From Candidatus Peregrinibacteria bacterium (lineage in GTDB: Bacteria; Patescibacteriota; Gracilibacteria; UBA1369; LOWO2-01-FULL-3): a stretch of DNA of 54,375 bases. The position numbers and the translations under genes are program-made. The notes under the pieces were generated by a model that saw nothing but the letters and a program-made list of their open reading frames with translations, was not told the DNA's origin and ran no database searches. Positions 41,388 through 49,504 of this stretch are shown piece after piece. Within the stretch, counting starts at the first letter, position 1. Each line of letters begins with the position of its first letter. The DNA lies in NCBI GenBank assembly GCA_014729275.1, contig WJKE01000102.1, positions 1 through 54,375 of the forward strand, given 5' to 3'.

Positions 41388-41433
41388 TGGAGCTGCGGAT
41401 GAGATTTGAACTCACGACCCCTTCCTTACCATG
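41388..41433 (-). pseudogene. 3' half of the split host tRNA-Thr(GGT) (anticodon loop to CCA); attR side
   Basis: Minus strand reads CATGGTAAGGAAGGGGTCGTGAGTTCAAATCTCATCCGCAGCTCCA. No matching 5' half lies adjacent; the complementary half is at 51850..51878. Confidence 0.85.
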
Positions 41434-42787: not shown

Positions 42788-45700
42788 GTGGCATCAATTT
42801 TTAAACAAAAAAAATTAAAAGAAGAACTTGAGAAATTTGAAATTCTGGAATTTGAGCAAAAGTTAGAAATAGTCAAAAAATGGCATAAGGCTTATGAAGA
42901 TGGAAGTTTGCAAAAAAAGAGTGAGAAAGAGGTTGAACAAGAGTTTATTCAGAGCTTTTTTGTGGATATTTTAGGATATACTCGATTCCCAGAAAATCCA
43001 CATACAATTATTCCACAGGGAAAAGTTCAAAAGGCTGGAGGTCAAAAACCTGATGCAATTTTGGGGTGTTTTGAGGAAGATAAGAAAATAAAAAGAGTTA
43101 GTGCGGTTTGTGAGATTAAAGATGCAAATACACCTTTAGATAAATCACAACAGAGAGCTGGGAGTATGACTCCGGTCCAGCAAGCTTTTAAATATAAATA
43201 TCAATATGATCGGTGTGATTTTGTGATTGCTACTAACTTTTTTGAAATCCGTCTTTTACAAGATACGGAATTGCATTATGAGAAATGGACATTAAAAACA
43301 CTTGTAGATGAAAAAAATGACTATTTTGACTTTAAAAAGTTTTACTATTTACTCTGTGAGAAAAATTTTGTGGCAAAGACGGGACAAAGTAGAACAGAAA
43401 AACTTCTATCGGAAATTCGGATTGAGGAAGAAGCAATTACCAAAAAGTTTTATGGTGAATACAAGAGTTTAAGATTAAGTTTGATTGGAAATATTTTGGC
43501 TAATAATGAGGAATTCTTAGGAGAGAATGCCTTGGATATTGCGATTGAAAAAGCTCAAAAGATTATTGATAGGATTGTTTTTGTATGTTTTTGTGAGGAC
43601 CTTGATTTGCTGCCTCAGCATAAATTGAAGGAAGTAGTCAATCATACTGAGAAAGTTGGTTTAGCTTTGCCGATTTGGGATATTATGAAAGGATTCTTTA
43701 ATGCTATTGATAGAGGTAGTGAAAAATTAGAGATTCCGCATGGTTTCAATGGTGAGTTATTTAAACAAGATCCTTTATTAGAAGGACTTAGAATTGATGA
43801 TGAACTTTGTAAGAGGTTTGTAGATTTAGGAAAATATGATTTTAGCGAAGATTTGACTGTAAATATTTTAGGACATATCTTTGAGCAATCAATAAGCGAT
43901 ATTGAAGATTTGAAGGCTTTGGATGATGTTGAAGAGCTTACAAAGAAGAAGTCAAAAAGGAAGAAGGAAGGCATTTTCTACACTCCCGAGTATATTGTTG
44001 ATTATATTGTAAAAAATTCAGTTGGGACTTGGCTTAAGGAAAGAGAAAAGGAATTATTAAAAAAACATGGGGTTAAGGAAGGTATTGAAGATAAAAATTA
44101 TAAGAAAAGATATCAAGCGGCTTATGAGGAATATCAAGGAGTTTTACAAAATATTAAAGTGTTAGATCCGGCCTGTGGTAGTGGTGCTTTTTTGGTGAAA
44201 GTATTTGATTATTTATTAGAAGAGAATAAAAGAGTGGGAGAGATTTTAGGAAATATATTTAGTGATGAAGGTTATATTAAAGACATTTTGCAGAATAATA
44301 TTTATGGTGTGGATTTAAATGAAGAGAGCGTGGAGATAACAAAATTATCTTTATGGTTAAAGACCGCAGAGAAAGGGAAAAAATTAACAACTTTAAAAGA
44401 AAATATAAAATGTGGAAATAGCTTAATAGATGATGTGGAAGTCGCTGGGGATAAAGCTTTTATATGGGAAAAGGAATTTAAAGAGATTATGGAAGCAGGG
44501 GGATTTGATGTGATTGTGGGAAATCCTCCATATGTAAGACAAGAACTGTTGAATTCAAAAATTAAAGAATTTTTAAATGTTAAGTATGATAATGTTGGCT
44601 CTTTTACTGCGGATCTTTATGTTTATTTTTTTGGGCTTTCATTGAGATTGCTTAATAGTAAAGGATTTTTAGGTTTTATTGCTCCAAATAAATGGATGGA
44701 AAGAAAATACGGATTTAACATGAGATGTTATATAAAAAATTATAATATTATTTATATAGTTAATTATGGAGAATTAAAGATTTTTGAGGATGCGAGTACT
44801 GAACCTGCAATATATATAATTAAAAATATCGAATCTCAAGATGATATCAACTATTCAAGATTAGAAAATTTAGCTTTAGCGCAAGCTACAGCCAATTATC
44901 ATTATGAAAAATATAAAAAATTTAATTTAGATGATAAAATATGGAGGTTTATTCCAAAAGAAAATCAAGTAATTTTAAATAAATTTCTAAAGAGCAATAA
45001 AAAAATATCTACTATTGGTGATTATACAAAGGGTGGTATCAAATATGGGATAAAAACTGGTTATAATACTGCTTTTATTATTAAAGAAGAGCAAAAAGAA
45101 CTTTTGATTGAAAATGATATAAAATCTTCTGAAATAATTAAACCTATGGTGGAAGGGGATGATTTTTCTGACTGGCATTTAATAAAGCAGGATAAATATA
45201 TGCTTGCTACTGGATATGATCTTGATATTCCTTCAGTATATCCTGCCATCTATGAATATTTAAAAAGTTACGAAGAAAAATTAATCAATAGATATGATAA
45301 AGGAGTAAATTATTGGAATCTAAGAGCTTGTGACTATTATGACTTGTTAGAGAAACCTAAAATTATCTTTTATCACACTGCAAAGCATCATTCTTTTTAT
45401 TATGATGAAGAGGGATTATATATAAGTGCAAATTGTTATTTTATTACAAATGTAGATAGATATTTGCAATGCTTTTTGAATTCGAAATTGTTTCAATTTG
45501 TTAAGAGGTATTTATTTCCGTCTTTTGGAGATCCAGAAAAAGGAGGACGTATGAGACTAGATGCAAATCAAATGAGAAAGGTTCCTATTGTTATTCCCGA
45601 AGCAAATCAAAAAGATGAATTTCATAAATTGGCAGAAAAAATTTCAAAATTTTCGACAGAAAGGCAGAGTGTTTTGGATAAGTTCGATAAGTTATTAAAA

Positions 45701-45952
45701 CAAGAATATAGTTTTAAATTTAAGAGTTCTCACATTTACAACTGGGATAAATTTATAGAAGAATTTAAGAAACAAAAAATTAAATTATCTTTATCTCAAA
45801 AAGATGAATTACTTCAAATTTTTGAAAAATATCAAAAGGAAATATTTGATTTTGATAATAAGATTAAGGCCATCGAGGAACAAATAAATAATGAAGTATT
45901 TGATTTATATGACTTAACTGATGATGAGAGAAGAATCGTATTAAATTTTTAA
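42788..45952 (+). CDS. type IIG/IIL restriction-modification fusion enzyme (N-terminal PD-ExK nuclease + Eco57I-like N6-adenine methyltransferase + TaqI_C-like target-recognition domain)
   Basis: 1054 aa with a GTG start. Nuclease-like PDAILG...VCEIKDAN. Methyltransferase motif I VLDPACGSGAFL and motif IV VIVGNPPYV. TRD-like region IWRFIP...GGIKYGIKTGYNTAFII. Confidence 0.8.
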   Translation: MASIFKQKKLKEELEKFEILEFEQKLEIVKKWHKAYEDGSLQKKSEKEVEQEFIQSFFVDILGYTRFPENPHTIIPQGKVQKAGGQKPDAILGCFEEDKKIKRVSAVCEIKDANTPLDKSQQRAGSMTPVQQAFKYKYQYDRCDFVIATNFFEIRLLQDTELHYEKWTLKTLVDEKNDYFDFKKFYYLLCEKNFVAKTGQSRTEKLLSEIRIEEEAITKKFYGEYKSLRLSLIGNILANNEEFLGENALDIAIEKAQKIIDRIVFVCFCEDLDLLPQHKLKEVVNHTEKVGLALPIWDIMKGFFNAIDRGSEKLEIPHGFNGELFKQDPLLEGLRIDDELCKRFVDLGKYDFSEDLTVNILGHIFEQSISDIEDLKALDDVEELTKKKSKRKKEGIFYTPEYIVDYIVKNSVGTWLKEREKELLKKHGVKEGIEDKNYKKRYQAAYEEYQGVLQNIKVLDPACGSGAFLVKVFDYLLEENKRVGEILGNIFSDEGYIKDILQNNIYGVDLNEESVEITKLSLWLKTAEKGKKLTTLKENIKCGNSLIDDVEVAGDKAFIWEKEFKEIMEAGGFDVIVGNPPYVRQELLNSKIKEFLNVKYDNVGSFTADLYVYFFGLSLRLLNSKGFLGFIAPNKWMERKYGFNMRCYIKNYNIIYIVNYGELKIFEDASTEPAIYIIKNIESQDDINYSRLENLALAQATANYHYEKYKKFNLDDKIWRFIPKENQVILNKFLKSNKKISTIGDYTKGGIKYGIKTGYNTAFIIKEEQKELLIENDIKSSEIIKPMVEGDDFSDWHLIKQDKYMLATGYDLDIPSVYPAIYEYLKSYEEKLINRYDKGVNYWNLRACDYYDLLEKPKIIFYHTAKHHSFYYDEEGLYISANCYFITNVDRYLQCFLNSKLFQFVKRYLFPSFGDPEKGGRMRLDANQMRKVPIVIPEANQKDEFHKLAEKISKFSTERQSVLDKFDKLLKQEYSFKFKSSHIYNWDKFIEEFKKQKIKLSLSQKDELLQIFEKYQKEIFDFDNKIKAIEEQINNEVFDLYDLTDDERRIVLNF

Positions 45953-45958
45953 TTAATT

Positions 45959-46711
45959 ATGTCCGAATATTACACACCAAAAAGAACCAGAAATTTATAT
46001 GCCACTAAAAGTAAAGAACCTTTTAAATTAAGTCGGTCCAAAATAGATTTATTTGTTGAATGTCCTAAATGTTTTTATTTAGATAGAAAATTGGGAGTTG
46101 CAAGACCTCCTGGCTTTCCTTTTGCTCTTAATAGTGCTGTAGATGCTTTGTTAAAACAAGAGTTTGATATTCACAGACTTAAAGGGACAAAACATCCTTT
46201 GATTAAAAAATATGGTATTGATGCTATTCCAATTTCACATGTTGAACTTGATAATTGGAGAAATAATTTTAAAGGCGTGCAATATCTTCACAAATCCACA
46301 AATTTACTCATTTTTGGAGCTATAGACGATCTTTGGCAGAATTCAAAGGGTGAGTTCATTGTTGTAGATTACAAGGCTACAGCGAAAGCTGAAGATATCA
46401 CGGTGCTTGATAAAAGTTGGCATGAGGGTTATAAGAGGCAAATGGAAGTTTACCAATGGCTATTGAGAAAAAATGGATACAAGGTCTCTGACATCGGTTA
46501 TTTTGTTTATTGTAATGGGAAAGCGGACCGAAAGGCTTTTGATGGAAAACTTGAATTTGATGTTACCGTGATCCCTTATAAAGGTTCTGATAAATGGGTG
46601 CCGAAAAAAATTAAAGAAACTTATAAGTGTTTGAATTCTTCAAAGATTCCAAAAGCTTCTGAGGATTGTGATTATTGTAATTATAGAGATGCTGTTTCAA
46701 GTGTACTTTAA
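45959..46711 (+). CDS. Cas4/RecB-like PD-(D/E)xK nuclease with four-Cys cluster
   Basis: 250 aa, 6 nt after the RM gene. N-terminal CPKC, core GAIDDLW...FIVVDYKAT (D...D-Y-K), QMEVYQWL (QxxxY), C-terminal CDYC. Confidence 0.65.
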   Translation: MSEYYTPKRTRNLYATKSKEPFKLSRSKIDLFVECPKCFYLDRKLGVARPPGFPFALNSAVDALLKQEFDIHRLKGTKHPLIKKYGIDAIPISHVELDNWRNNFKGVQYLHKSTNLLIFGAIDDLWQNSKGEFIVVDYKATAKAEDITVLDKSWHEGYKRQMEVYQWLLRKNGYKVSDIGYFVYCNGKADRKAFDGKLEFDVTVIPYKGSDKWVPKKIKETYKCLNSSKIPKASEDCDYCNYRDAVSSVL

Positions 46712-46800
46712 TCTAAAATTACAATAGTTTTTGAGGCTTATAAAAAAGAGTCCCTTAAGCGAAAATTTGAGTTTTTCGTCTATATAAAAAAGGGGCAAAA

Positions 46801-46839
46801 AAATAGTATTTTCGGGTATATAAAAAGAGATTATTTTTT
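46801..46839 (+). promoter_or_regulatory. conserved upstream motif, copy 1 (AAATAGTATTTTCGGGTATATAAAAAGAGATTATTTTTT)
   Basis: Nearly identical to 47670..47709. Contains a TATATAA -10-like element. A degenerate extra copy lies at 46772..46793. Lies 47 nt upstream of the ATG at 46886. Confidence 0.45.
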
Positions 46840-46885
46840 AATAAATATTTTATAGATGATATAATCATTGCCTTAATAATTTATT

Positions 46886-47671
46886 ATGAAAAGTTCTTTT
46901 ACGATAAAAGTTTCTAAGCCATTATCGGAGGGAGAGGCAAAACCAGAAGCTATGGTGGGAGATGCTGAAGGTAATTGGAAACCTACGGACAAAATAATTT
47001 GGGCTAGAATGCATGTTGAAAATGACATTAAAGAATTGGAAGAAATTTTTAATCCGTATAAAGAATATTTTTCAACTGGTCGAATAAAAAATATTCGATA
47101 TAAATTATATGCTTTAAGATATGAAAAAGAAGCTTATATAAAGGCTGAAGAAGAAAAAGAGCGTGAATATAAAAAAGGATTTCAACCGGGTTTAGGAATG
47201 GAATTTACAGAATCAAATTTGAGAGCTCTATATCGAGTAGAGTCTTTTCTTTTTCAAGCAAAAAGTACATTAGATATTATGTCTCTTATTTTAAAGGATA
47301 AAATCCAAAATTATACCTTTGAGGGGTTTGGAAAATCTTGTGACGAAAATAATGAGGAGCTTGCAGGTCAAAAGATTATAAAGGAATTAAAAAAAATAGA
47401 TTCTGAACATGATTTTGAACCCTTGATAAAATTAATAAAGGACAATCAGTCTTGGCTTACTGAATTAGTAAAAGAAAGAGACAAGATTGCTCATAATACT
47501 TCTATTCAAGCTTTATGGTTTGTTGAGCTTACATATAAAGGGGGTGATTATCTTGAAATTGTTTATCCCCATATGCCCAACGATATTCGAATAAAAGAAT
47601 ATTTAGAATTAGTTGAAAGAAGGTTACATATTTTTGTGCAGAATTTTTTATCTTTGGTTTCAAAATTTTAA
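46886..47671 (+). CDS. hypothetical protein with HEPN-like R-x4-H motif (RDKIAH)
   Basis: 261 aa. ELVKERDKIAHNTS resembles the R[ND]xxAH catalytic motif of Abi-type HEPN RNases. This is single-motif evidence only. Confidence 0.4.
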   Translation: MKSSFTIKVSKPLSEGEAKPEAMVGDAEGNWKPTDKIIWARMHVENDIKELEEIFNPYKEYFSTGRIKNIRYKLYALRYEKEAYIKAEEEKEREYKKGFQPGLGMEFTESNLRALYRVESFLFQAKSTLDIMSLILKDKIQNYTFEGFGKSCDENNEELAGQKIIKELKKIDSEHDFEPLIKLIKDNQSWLTELVKERDKIAHNTSIQALWFVELTYKGGDYLEIVYPHMPNDIRIKEYLELVERRLHIFVQNFLSLVSKF

Positions 47672-47709
47672 ATAGTTTTTTCGGGTATATAAAAAGAGAT
47701 TAATTTTTT
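47670..47709 (+). promoter_or_regulatory. conserved upstream motif, copy 2 (AAATAGTTTTTTCGGGTATATAAAAAGAGATTAATTTTTT)
   Basis: Nearly identical to 46801..46839. Starts at the stop codon of the preceding gene and ends 10 nt before the ATG at 47719. Confidence 0.45.
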
Positions 47710-47718
47710 GGAATAAAA

Positions 47719-48423
47719 ATGTATTATTCGGCTATGGAAGATTTTTTGTTTTACCTGCAATTACTGATTAAATCAGTGCCTTCATTTAATGAGGGGGTCG
47801 AGGCTATTCGAAATAAATATAAATGCTACCCTTCGACCTCTATGCATGATAACAGGGCTGATTTAAGAGATGTCCGGAAATTAATGGAAGAACATTTTAT
47901 TCCGGATAAGGAAAAATATTTGGACCTCGTTTGTAAATTTATATACACAAATACCTTTTCCAATAAATATCTCGTTAGAGACTGTTTAAATGCCTCTGAG
48001 GAGCATCCCAGAGAGTTGGTCGTTACACGCCCGGCTATAACAATACATATTTTTGAAAAGATGAATGAGGAGGAATGGAGGGATATTTGGAGTAAATATA
48101 TAAAAGAGGGGCATTTAGAAATTAATTATGGAGATCATATCGAAGGACCGGCGTGGTTAGAAAAAGAAGATAAAAGGGAATACTTGAATAAAATGTCTAT
48201 TGAAGCTTTAAAGCGTCCTCATAGTGATATTAAGAAACAATTAAATTTTCGTTTGGCTTTTAAACTTTTTGGGCTTCGTAAGAATCGAGTTGAAATTTCT
48301 GAAATTTTAGATAAAATGGCATCGATAAAGGAAGAATGTGGAATTAGTAAGAAGAGAATATTTACAAAAGAAGAGGTTAATCAAATGATTTCCGACTTCG
48401 CAAAAGAGTTAGAAAAGCTTTAG
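47719..48423 (+). CDS. hypothetical protein (island cargo)
   Basis: 234-aa ORF preceded by the conserved motif. No domain recognised. Confidence 0.45.
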   Translation: MYYSAMEDFLFYLQLLIKSVPSFNEGVEAIRNKYKCYPSTSMHDNRADLRDVRKLMEEHFIPDKEKYLDLVCKFIYTNTFSNKYLVRDCLNASEEHPRELVVTRPAITIHIFEKMNEEEWRDIWSKYIKEGHLEINYGDHIEGPAWLEKEDKREYLNKMSIEALKRPHSDIKKQLNFRLAFKLFGLRKNRVEISEILDKMASIKEECGISKKRIFTKEEVNQMISDFAKELEKL

Positions 48424-48520: not shown

Positions 48521-49504
48521 GTGATAGATGAATCAAACAAATTGTGGAAATTACTGCCGGATTCGGAAATTAAATCTTTCAAATCCAAAGTACCCCCAAA
48601 CCAAAAACCATTATGGTTTTACTGGAATGAATTTGTCCATAAATATTTAAGAACCGGTAAAAGTGAAATAACGGTTAGTAATGTTCGTGATGCATTAAGG
48701 TTTATAATCCGGAATGTGAGTCTGTATTCTATTGAACAGGTTAATGATCACCGGACTTTGGAAGATTTTTTGCATAAGGTAAAAGACAAGAGGGGGCTTA
48801 ATCCAACGACATTTAATACTTATTTGAAAAATCTAAATACATTTTTTATTTGGCTTCACAGACAGGATTATATTGCTGATAACAATATTTTGAAGGTTCA
48901 AAAATGCAAACAGACCGAGAACGAACAATATATATTATCCGAGACTCAGGTTAAACAGATTGTCTCTCATATTCATGACCGGAGACAAACACGTTTATTG
49001 AGATTCAGAAATATTTTTTTTATTGATTTGCTTAGGTTTACCGGGGCAAGGCCTTGTGAGATACAGGAAATTCAATGTAAGGATATAAGAGGTGAAAAAG
49101 GGACATACGTCTTAGTGATTCATGGGAAAAAGCAGAAAGGAAAACCACGGTATTATAGATTCCCTTCGTGGCTTAGGGATTCTTATGAGAATTATGTTTC
49201 TTACCGGTCCCGTGTCCGTGATAACGAGTCTTATTTGTTCATTTCTTCGTCAACACAGGGGCGGTGGACTTCTAAGGGGATGAAATGCCTCTTTAACAAA
49301 CTGTCTGATGAATTGGGCTTTAGAGTAATTGCTTACGGTTTCAGGAGGTATGTGGCAACAAAGCTATATTTAGCTGAGGTCCCGATGACAGACATTCAAC
49401 AATATTTAGGGCATACAAGGATTACTACGACTATAAGGTATGTTGAGAGGACATGTGCTTTGACTAAGAAGGGGGCGGATGTGATGGGGAAGGCGTTAAA
49501 TTAA
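48521..49504 (+). CDS. tyrosine recombinase/integrase (second, inward-facing copy)
   Basis: 327 aa with a GTG start. Has FTGARPCEI (Arg I), HGKKQKGK (Lys), YGFRRYVAT (box II, with the His apparently replaced) and LGHTRITTTIRY (His/Tyr). Confidence 0.75.
   Translation: MIDESNKLWKLLPDSEIKSFKSKVPPNQKPLWFYWNEFVHKYLRTGKSEITVSNVRDALRFIIRNVSLYSIEQVNDHRTLEDFLHKVKDKRGLNPTTFNTYLKNLNTFFIWLHRQDYIADNNILKVQKCKQTENEQYILSETQVKQIVSHIHDRRQTRLLRFRNIFFIDLLRFTGARPCEIQEIQCKDIRGEKGTYVLVIHGKKQKGKPRYYRFPSWLRDSYENYVSYRSRVRDNESYLFISSSTQGRWTSKGMKCLFNKLSDELGFRVIAYGFRRYVATKLYLAEVPMTDIQQYLGHTRITTTIRYVERTCALTKKGADVMGKALN

Follow-up and report, generated by a model that had tools for sequence, protein, structure and literature searches.

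Integrase-adjacent directionality factors and regulators are known to have iterated sites, such as the lambda Xis sites and the phage P2 Cox boxes. HEPN proteins are defined by an Rx4-6H motif at the end of helix 3, in which the R is followed by a polar residue (N, D, or H), by an acidic residue carried on helix 2, and by an insert that separates helices 2 and 3 (Anantharaman et al. 2013; PMC3710099). The curated HEPN families nearest to the protein considered below are the Cthe_2314-like (PF18730) and the Apea-like (PF18739) families (PMC3710099), and the Cthe_2314 family has no fixed gene context. An 'integron cassette HEPN' family has also been described (PDB 3jrt; PMC3710099), and Rugutis is a lactococcal single-gene antiphage protein of 359 aa that carries an N-terminal SEC-C motif in an otherwise unknown fold (PMC11381338, PMC13064643). 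In the present study, we analyzed a stretch of 54,375 nucleotides from a Candidatus Peregrinibacteria bacterium (contig WJKE01000102.1; this whole stretch is referred to as the window hereafter), focusing on a direct repeat of 39/40 nt that precedes each of two adjacent genes, one for a 261-aa predicted HEPN protein and the other for a 234-aa protein. The picture that we favor, and consider fairly likely as a whole, is that a solo HEPN gene lies inside a four-unit repeat array and that the 234-aa gene is a companion of the recombinase gene that follows it. A corresponding array was found in a second genome, which is referred to as G454.

The features of the repeat region and of the genes around it are as follows.
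46722..46750, + strand: array unit a, degenerate, about 10 nt past the stop codon of the Cas4-like gene; 72% over 39 nt; counterpart of unit r0 of the G454 array
46765..46795, + strand: array unit b, degenerate, with the core TTTTTCGTCTATATAAAAAAGGGGCAAA; counterpart of unit r1 of the G454 array
46801..46839, + strand: array unit c, the first of two near-identical copies
46838..46865, + strand: sigma-70-type promoter of the HEPN gene, composed of TTAATA, 16 nt, and the extended -10 TGATATAAT at 46856-46864
46886..47671, + strand: gene for the 261-aa predicted HEPN-superfamily protein, without a SEC-C motif (open reading frame list and profile searches)
47477..47494, + strand: codons R198-D-K-I-A-H203 (Rx4H, the putative catalytic site), read from the sequence
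47670..47709, + strand: array unit d, the second near-identical copy, overlapping with the HEPN stop codon; 9 nt separate its end from the start of the 234-aa gene
47719..48423, + strand: gene for the 234-aa protein, all-helical and of unknown fold; the first gene of a conserved two-gene module
48521..49504, + strand: gene for the Xer-like tyrosine recombinase of 327 aa; conserved as the partner of the 234-aa gene

Two exact occurrences of the 25-mer TTTTCGGGTATATAAAAAGAGATTA were found in the window (46809-46833 and 47678-47702), where shuffled sequences give an expectation of 0. The full repeats of 39/40 nt (46801-46839 and 47670-47709) are 95% identical, differing in one A/T substitution and one extra A, just as a first-pass annotation of this DNA had described them (one substitution and one 1-nt indel). 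That annotation had also pointed to a degenerate third copy at around 46772. This copy is real: the segment 46772-46790 in unit b shows 84–89% identity over 19 nt and beats 2000 shuffles (p ≤ 0.0005). However, a fourth copy, at around 46722-46750 (unit a), had been overlooked; its alignment with unit d has a score of 31 as compared with a shuffle mean of 14 (p ≤ 0.0005; 2000 shuffles). The unit spacings are 44 nt between a and b, 36 nt between b and c, and 869 nt between c and d. The segment of ~830 bp that lies between units c and d consists of a canonical extended -10 promoter and the HEPN coding sequence and terminates on the right precisely with the HEPN stop codon. Outside the repeat, the similarity between c and d shows no significant extension (p = 0.14 downstream and 0.44 upstream).

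Within the genome, the motif is confined to this locus. With the 19-mer core and up to 3 mismatches, the whole 1.44-Mb genome gave this locus and one other site, which is the level of control patterns; a relaxed core pattern gave 8 genome matches, 3 of which are at this locus, with copy c missed by the pattern. No match to the motif was found in metagenome and viral contig collections, and the 21 scattered matches to the 19-mer in 596 Gb of genomes belong to unrelated taxa and are at chance level. Two possible roles of the motif itself were examined and rejected: as a structured RNA it has no significant fold (z from -0.2 to -1.2), and as a terminator it has no terminator signature.

The island at L157 in G454, whose recombinase is 53% identical to that of the window, contains four tandem units spaced at 45, 37, and 36 nt. 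These units follow the stop codon of the last cargo gene and precede the 234-aa-like gene, their consensus is approximately AAATTRGGGGTTTTCTYACACGATAAAAAAGRG, and a TGATATGAT -10 box is located after them. When the window and G454 arrays were aligned, the score was 33 as compared with a shuffle mean of 18, and 0 of 3000 shuffles scored as high; unit a is thereby matched to r0 and unit b to r1, and the spacer TTAAGCSAAAA, common to both arrays, lies within the alignment. In G454, as in the window, co-oriented cargo is situated between the displaced tRNA half (attR) and the array. The array is missing from three islands in which the 234-aa gene abuts the island end. The orthology of the window and G454 arrays is shown by these results, as are the anatomy of the locus and the gene synteny. 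Since the same unit number, spacing pattern, and position have been kept in a diverged second genome, selection on the arrangement is suggested. The pattern TTTTC-N6-7-ATAAAAARRG is rare, with 4 occurrences in the window's genome (G000; three at the locus), 1 in G454, and 0 in each of G003, G009, and G010. The sole other occurrence in G000 is TTTTCTACAAAGATAAAAAAGG at C30:5180-5201.

The second element of the picture concerns the 234-aa gene. A six-frame search of related genomes yielded a relative of 203 aa in G003 (27% identity; E = 1e-12) and another of 211 aa in G009 (25% identity; E = 3e-10), both encoded directly upstream, on the same strand, of orthologues of the 327-aa recombinase (53% and 49% identity, respectively). 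Five further recombinase loci were obtained by a scan with an alignment of four recombinases, and a hidden Markov model of the 234-aa family detected members at L155, L157, and L162 (E values of 1e-33, 6e-29, and 3e-25), again directly upstream of the recombinase. Altogether, 6 of the 9 recombinase loci, including that of the window, carry a gene of the 234-aa family, and a HEPN relative within 4 kb was found at 0 of the 9. The islands that carry the six family members split tRNA-Thr. The identity within the 234-aa family is 20–28%, and the family evolves much faster than the recombinase. In G000, G003, G009, and G010, tRNA-Thr and a 298-aa integrase gene are located beside the recombination module. 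Judged from this gene order, the 234-aa gene is part of the recombination module of the island, as the first gene of a conserved operon with the second tyrosine recombinase, it has in this picture no functional relation to the HEPN gene, and the term 'cargo' given to it in the first-pass annotation has to be abandoned. By gene position only, the 234-aa protein most likely assists or regulates the recombinase, possibly through DNA binding. Neither the protein nor its family has a consistent family, PDB, or defense-library match (Pfam, NCBIfam, PADLOC, PHROG, and PDB sequences), the few matches obtained being isolated, weak (E ≥ 0.004), and unrelated to antitoxins. The single-sequence structure model of the 234-aa protein was poor, with a predicted local distance difference test (pLDDT) score of 48.

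Some other observations were made at the related islands. In two of them, the slot upstream of the 327-aa-type recombinase is filled by unrelated proteins (L046:2173-2766 in G010, and L159:897-1652); that of G010 has 197 aa and a Cys-rich, zinc-ribbon-like segment, and its gene overlaps the recombinase start by 4 nt. In addition, the end of the island carries, upstream of the 234-aa-like gene, a conserved non-coding element of ~70 nt at L044:11866-12153 (G003), L045:11180-11320 (G009), and L155:2960-3060. Its stem shows compensatory changes (GGGCGTAGAG...CTCTACGCCC versus GGACGTCGAG...CTCGACGCCC). Neither Rfam nor ARAGORN gave a match to this element, and the window's genome does not contain it.

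The 261-aa and 234-aa open reading frames and the RDKIAH sequence are as the first-pass annotation had given them (open reading frame list). Its view that the 261-aa protein is HEPN-like also agrees with our results: the protein looks like one of the HEPN superfamily, in that RxxxxH is the sole invariant feature and the relatives match HEPN Pfam models. We rate its membership in the HEPN superfamily as probable, on the basis of the family conservation, the Pfam matches, and a secondary structure that fits the published definition. A word-indexed search provided 2 relatives of 53–55% identity, and an HMMER profile search provided 154 representative relatives, 52 of them at E ≤ 1e-10. In the family alignment of 61 sequences, R198 and H203 (Rx4H) are the only invariant columns. 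The family consensus there is MRDxITH, and the window protein has RDKIAH, with a polar D after the R. Conservation of at least 90% in the 61 sequences was also found for K73, E119, L122, Q124, S127, L129, D130, W190, and P228. Among these, the acidic residues E119 (conserved at 90% or more) and D130 lie within a long helix (109–139) upstream of Rx4H. An N-terminal SEC-C motif occurs in 27 of the 61 relatives (~44%), and the window protein is without it.

Regarding the matches to curated models, HEPN_Cthe2314 was matched by 15 of the 61 relatives (best E = 2.7e-6), and HEPN_Apea was also matched by 15 of the 61. About half of the relatives match Pfam HEPN models below threshold, and a few match Swt1, RiboL-PSP, or MAE_28990. 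The HEPN model matches that were inspected individually are located in or beside the Rx4H segment. For the window protein, the sole curated-model match was HEPN_Swt1 (E = 0.074 over residues 182–208). Its structure model, although poor (pLDDT 49.6), places helices at 65–96, 109–139, and 188–204, the last of which ends at Rx4H, followed by a hairpin and a helix at 234–258; this secondary structure is consistent with all four features of the published HEPN definition. Several results weigh against the HEPN assignment. The HEPN model scores were below the gathering thresholds for the window protein and the ten relatives scanned individually (24.8 bits at the top), and hhalign against one bona fide Cthe_2314-like protein, with the motifs in register, gave only E = 0.14. 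The AlphaFold model with the above score of 49.6 was built from a three-sequence alignment, and a Foldseek search of this poor model against the PDB gave no match at E ≤ 0.001 and nothing meaningful. A profile search of the family against PDB sequences gave noise only. No match for the 261-aa protein was found in PADLOC, NCBIfam, or PHROGs, and Abi_2 (PF07751) was not matched, except for one relative at E = 0.043 among the members scanned individually. The rating given above applies to the superfamily and not to any named HEPN family. The prediction for the 261-aa protein is a metal-independent RNase whose catalytic pair would be R198 and H203.

The 261-aa family is scattered, being found in 4 of 401 Patescibacteria genomes and, elsewhere, in Dehalococcoidia, Anaerolineales, Nitrospira, Brocadiales, Planctomycetota, Bathyarchaeia, and others. 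The neighbors of the relatives vary across 17 loci from many phyla, and the close HEPN homologues either adjoin genes that encode a lipoprotein and a terminase small subunit or have no same-strand neighbor. No repeats like the array units were found at the HEPN homologues elsewhere. From these surroundings, the 261-aa gene behaves as a solo gene and is defense-type cargo without a dedicated neighbor.

Some of the homologous loci have features of their own. In a metagenome-assembled genome of Dehalococcoidia (L055:3986-4924), a SEC-C/HEPN-like gene has two genes of ~475 aa on one side and, on the other, a downstream gene whose product starts with MRYFDAKEWNLTKKAILVLEDGS. We take these flanking genes to be pyrimidine-synthesis genes, the last of which resembles carA, and the SEC-C/HEPN-like gene looks like a solo insertion into a seeming housekeeping cluster. 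A Brocadiales SEC-C/HEPN-like member (L066:3998-4863) is broken into open reading frames of 153 and 76 aa, probably as a pseudogene or through an assembly error. At L001:5426-6496 (the same as L038:195-1265), a gene convergent with that of the closest HEPN homologue (P0002) encodes a 356-aa protein containing ...YSKRSDFVHGSYF..., which is Rx4H-like, so that a second HEPN protein may be encoded here. Immediately before the HEPN homologue of this locus, on its upstream side, a run of N (L001:4071-4169) interrupts a short open reading frame conserved between L001 and L004.

The promoter positions provide a clue to the role of the repeat. The promoter of the HEPN gene shows 10 of 12 consensus matches together with TG, and its TGATATAAT box is located 22–30 nt upstream of the ATG. 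Genome-wide, TATAAT and TG.TATAAT peak at 11–40 nt upstream of the start codons, TTGACA peaks at 51–60 nt, and no enrichment of Shine-Dalgarno-like words was found upstream of the starts in G000. The leaders are thus short, in view of the -10 boxes at 11–40 nt and the lack of Shine-Dalgarno enrichment, and these sequence statistics suggest that the mRNAs of this organism have very short leaders or none at all. The TATATAA box of unit d, which precedes the 234-aa start by 33 to 27 nt, is within the usual range of 11–40 nt, whereas that of unit c, at 69 nt upstream of the HEPN start, is outside it. No terminator-like site was found between the two genes. The first-pass annotation had regarded the motif as a promoter or operator shared by the two genes. 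What stands of this proposal is that the motif is a real, non-random, locus-specific cis element; however, a simple shared promoter fits poorly with the distances of 33 and 69 nt and with the separate promoter of the HEPN gene.

On these grounds, we propose the following course of events. In the ancestral state, a four-unit array would have followed the last cargo gene and preceded the 234-aa/recombinase operon. A segment of ~830 bp carrying a promoter and the HEPN gene would then have been inserted between units c and d. Because the HEPN segment splits the array, each of the two genes is preceded by the same motif. The array would consist of iterated protein-binding sites (operator or arm-type) of the recombination module, and unit d would double as the -10 region of the 234-aa gene. 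To the array being a protein-binding element of the module we give an even chance. There are also points that tell against this picture: single units of the window and G454 are not significantly alike (p = 0.09–0.17), the array is present in only 2 of the 6 islands carrying a 234-aa family gene, and searches of the 234-aa family revealed no DNA-binding domain. As an alternative to insertion between units c and d, a duplication of unit c may have accompanied the arrival of the HEPN gene; the promoter-like leader occurs after unit c in the window but after the last unit (r3) in G454.

Other explanations of the repeats were weighed against the picture of a HEPN gene within a binding-site array. 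One is that the units are neutral, the decaying footprint of a minisatellite or a duplication, with copy d produced by illegitimate recombination at the HEPN insertion. The degeneration of units a and b and the lack of the motif in 4 of the 6 related islands and in all of the public collections searched accord with such a scar. We nevertheless consider it rather unlikely, since an array of the same unit number, spacing pattern, and position has been kept in a genome whose recombinase is 53% identical and whose units have diverged.

Another explanation is that the units are recombination sites of the 327-aa recombinase, with the 234-aa protein as a cofactor. The HEPN gene plus one unit would then be a mobile cassette, with a circle of ~869 bp; its site-specific integration would leave a direct repeat on each side, and the array would be a site of cargo acquisition. 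This is attractive because the direct repeats are precise: the HEPN segment is bounded exactly by 39/40-nt direct repeats of 95% identity, its right end is the stop codon, and the similarity is confined to the repeat itself. Furthermore, the recombinase gene is adjacent to the array, and the array occurs only in the two islands that have cargo on this side of the recombinase operon. However, the units have no evident inverted-repeat core or stable single-strand fold, the recombinase is far under the integron-integrase cut-off, the other cargo genes of both islands are not individually flanked by units, and such repeats are not seen at the HEPN homologues elsewhere; cassette capture is therefore judged unlikely. 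Its broader form, in which the recombinase and the 234-aa protein constitute an integron-like platform unrelated to IntI/attC that inserts promoter-bearing single-gene cassettes between units in the tRNA-splitting islands of Peregrinibacteria, is quite doubtful.

The remaining explanation, offered in the first-pass annotation, is that the HEPN toxin and the 234-aa protein are a toxin/immunity or abortive-infection pair, transcribed independently and co-regulated via the motif; the two genes are indeed adjacent on the same strand, each with the motif before it and with no terminator-like site separating them, and HEPN toxins are often encoded beside antitoxins (general knowledge; PMC3710099), but the pair occurs in no other genome, the HEPN relatives have different, unrelated neighbors, the five other 234-aa relatives are all upstream of the recombinase orthologue, never beside a HEPN gene (none within 4 kb), neither an MNT nor any other antitoxin signature is present in the 234-aa protein, and the motif lies at unequal distances from the two starts, with the HEPN gene having its own promoter, so that this pairing is very improbable. 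The same annotation had itself named a lack of co-conservation in other genomes as grounds for giving the pair up, and since the 261-aa and 234-aa genes are not co-conserved, the toxin/immunity reading fails.

As for its setting, the locus lies within an island of ~10.4 kb that splits the host tRNA-Thr(GGT) gene in the anticodon loop and carries its own tRNA copy. By direct sequence reading, the minus strand of 51878-51840 is GCTGCGGTAGCTCAGGGGTAGAGCACTTCCATGGTAAGG, the acceptor strand of which pairs with the fragment 41388-41433; the tRNA-like fragment at ~41388-41433 is the displaced 3′ half of the host tRNA-Thr gene. All of the genes are co-directional, in the order of type IIG restriction-modification, Cas4-like, 261-aa, 234-aa, and 327-aa recombinase genes, the first two being as follows.
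42788-45952, same direction as the 261-aa gene: type IIG restriction-modification enzyme
45959-46711, same direction as the 261-aa gene: Cas4-like four-Cys PD-(D/E)XK protein
Past the 327-aa recombinase gene, a 402-aa orphan gene is followed by the gene of the 298-aa integrase, which adjoins tRNA-Thr(GGT). The locus is an ordinary island anatomy plus one unexplained repeat array.

The Cas4-like protein was found to be very conserved: ~500 loci encode relatives, the best 80 of which are 66–79% identical, and they are spread over many candidate-phyla-radiation lineages and other metagenome-assembled genomes. Since a type IIG restriction-modification gene is near only 1 of the 80 best Cas4-like loci, the Cas4-like protein is not a dedicated partner of the restriction-modification enzyme. 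A conserved trio of the restriction-modification, Cas4-like, and HEPN genes was also considered and rejected, as 0 of the 80 Cas4-like loci have a HEPN or 234-aa relative and 1 of the 80 has the restriction-modification gene. So was the possibility that the motif travels with the Cas4-like gene, as nothing similar was found downstream of the homologues in 77 loci.

These results correct a tempting mis-annotation, since the presence of an unknown gene next to a HEPN gene does not in itself make the two a toxin–antitoxin pair. The HEPN-like family described here, which is uncurated, widely scattered, and often SEC-C-fused, is a candidate for the catalogues of defense genes. A conserved accessory gene and a repeat array can be assigned to the second recombinase of a family of tRNA-splitting islands in bacteria of the candidate phyla radiation. 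If the array is functional, binding or capture sites would explain the regulation or acquisition of the island cargo.

Finally, the locus is compared with the known systems. The 261-aa family shares with the Cthe_2314-like and Apea-like families an Rx4H at a helix end, a polar residue after the R, and an upstream acidic residue, and also a helical nature, a patchy distribution, and a tie to mobile or defense DNA. It differs from them in a conserved EAFLFQxKSxLD helix of its own, in a YPxMP hairpin that follows the motif, and in the N-terminal SEC-C zinc motif of ~44% of its members. Like the Abi-type HEPN proteins (AbiD/AbiF of Abi_2, AbiJ, AbiU2, and AbiV), the 261-aa protein is stand-alone and is encoded in a mobile element beside a restriction-modification gene; by analogy, RNA cleavage on infection would be the expected mode for it. 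Unlike them, it has no significant match to Abi_2 or another Abi model, and PADLOC gave no match. With Rugutis, many of the 261-aa relatives have in common an N-terminal SEC-C motif joined to a domain of ~270 aa without a PDB match, encoded by a single gene, which is a likeness of layout and serves as a lead only. A tblastn search of the PLSDB plasmids with two members of the 261-aa family gave nothing beyond the SEC-C motif and no Rugutis link.

The repeat-bounded HEPN gene can also be compared with integron cassettes. Both are short single-gene HEPN units that are bounded by repeats and located beside a tyrosine recombinase gene. However, the array units form no attC-like hairpin (folding z from -0.2 to -1.2), the HEPN gene is flanked by identical direct repeats, whereas attC sites are unique, this gene has its own promoter, and the 327-aa recombinase is not IntI (28 bits for TIGR02249, as compared with a cut-off of 265). 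As for the integrase-adjacent factors such as Xis and Cox, the 234-aa protein is much larger than these and has no detectable helix-turn-helix, and a distance of 5–6 kb separates the array from the tRNA att site. The 234-aa/recombinase module with its array resembles the arrangements of an integrase and a recombination directionality factor or regulator in outline only, the shared outline being a fast-evolving protein of small or medium size encoded directly upstream of a tyrosine recombinase, with tandem direct repeats upstream of the operon.

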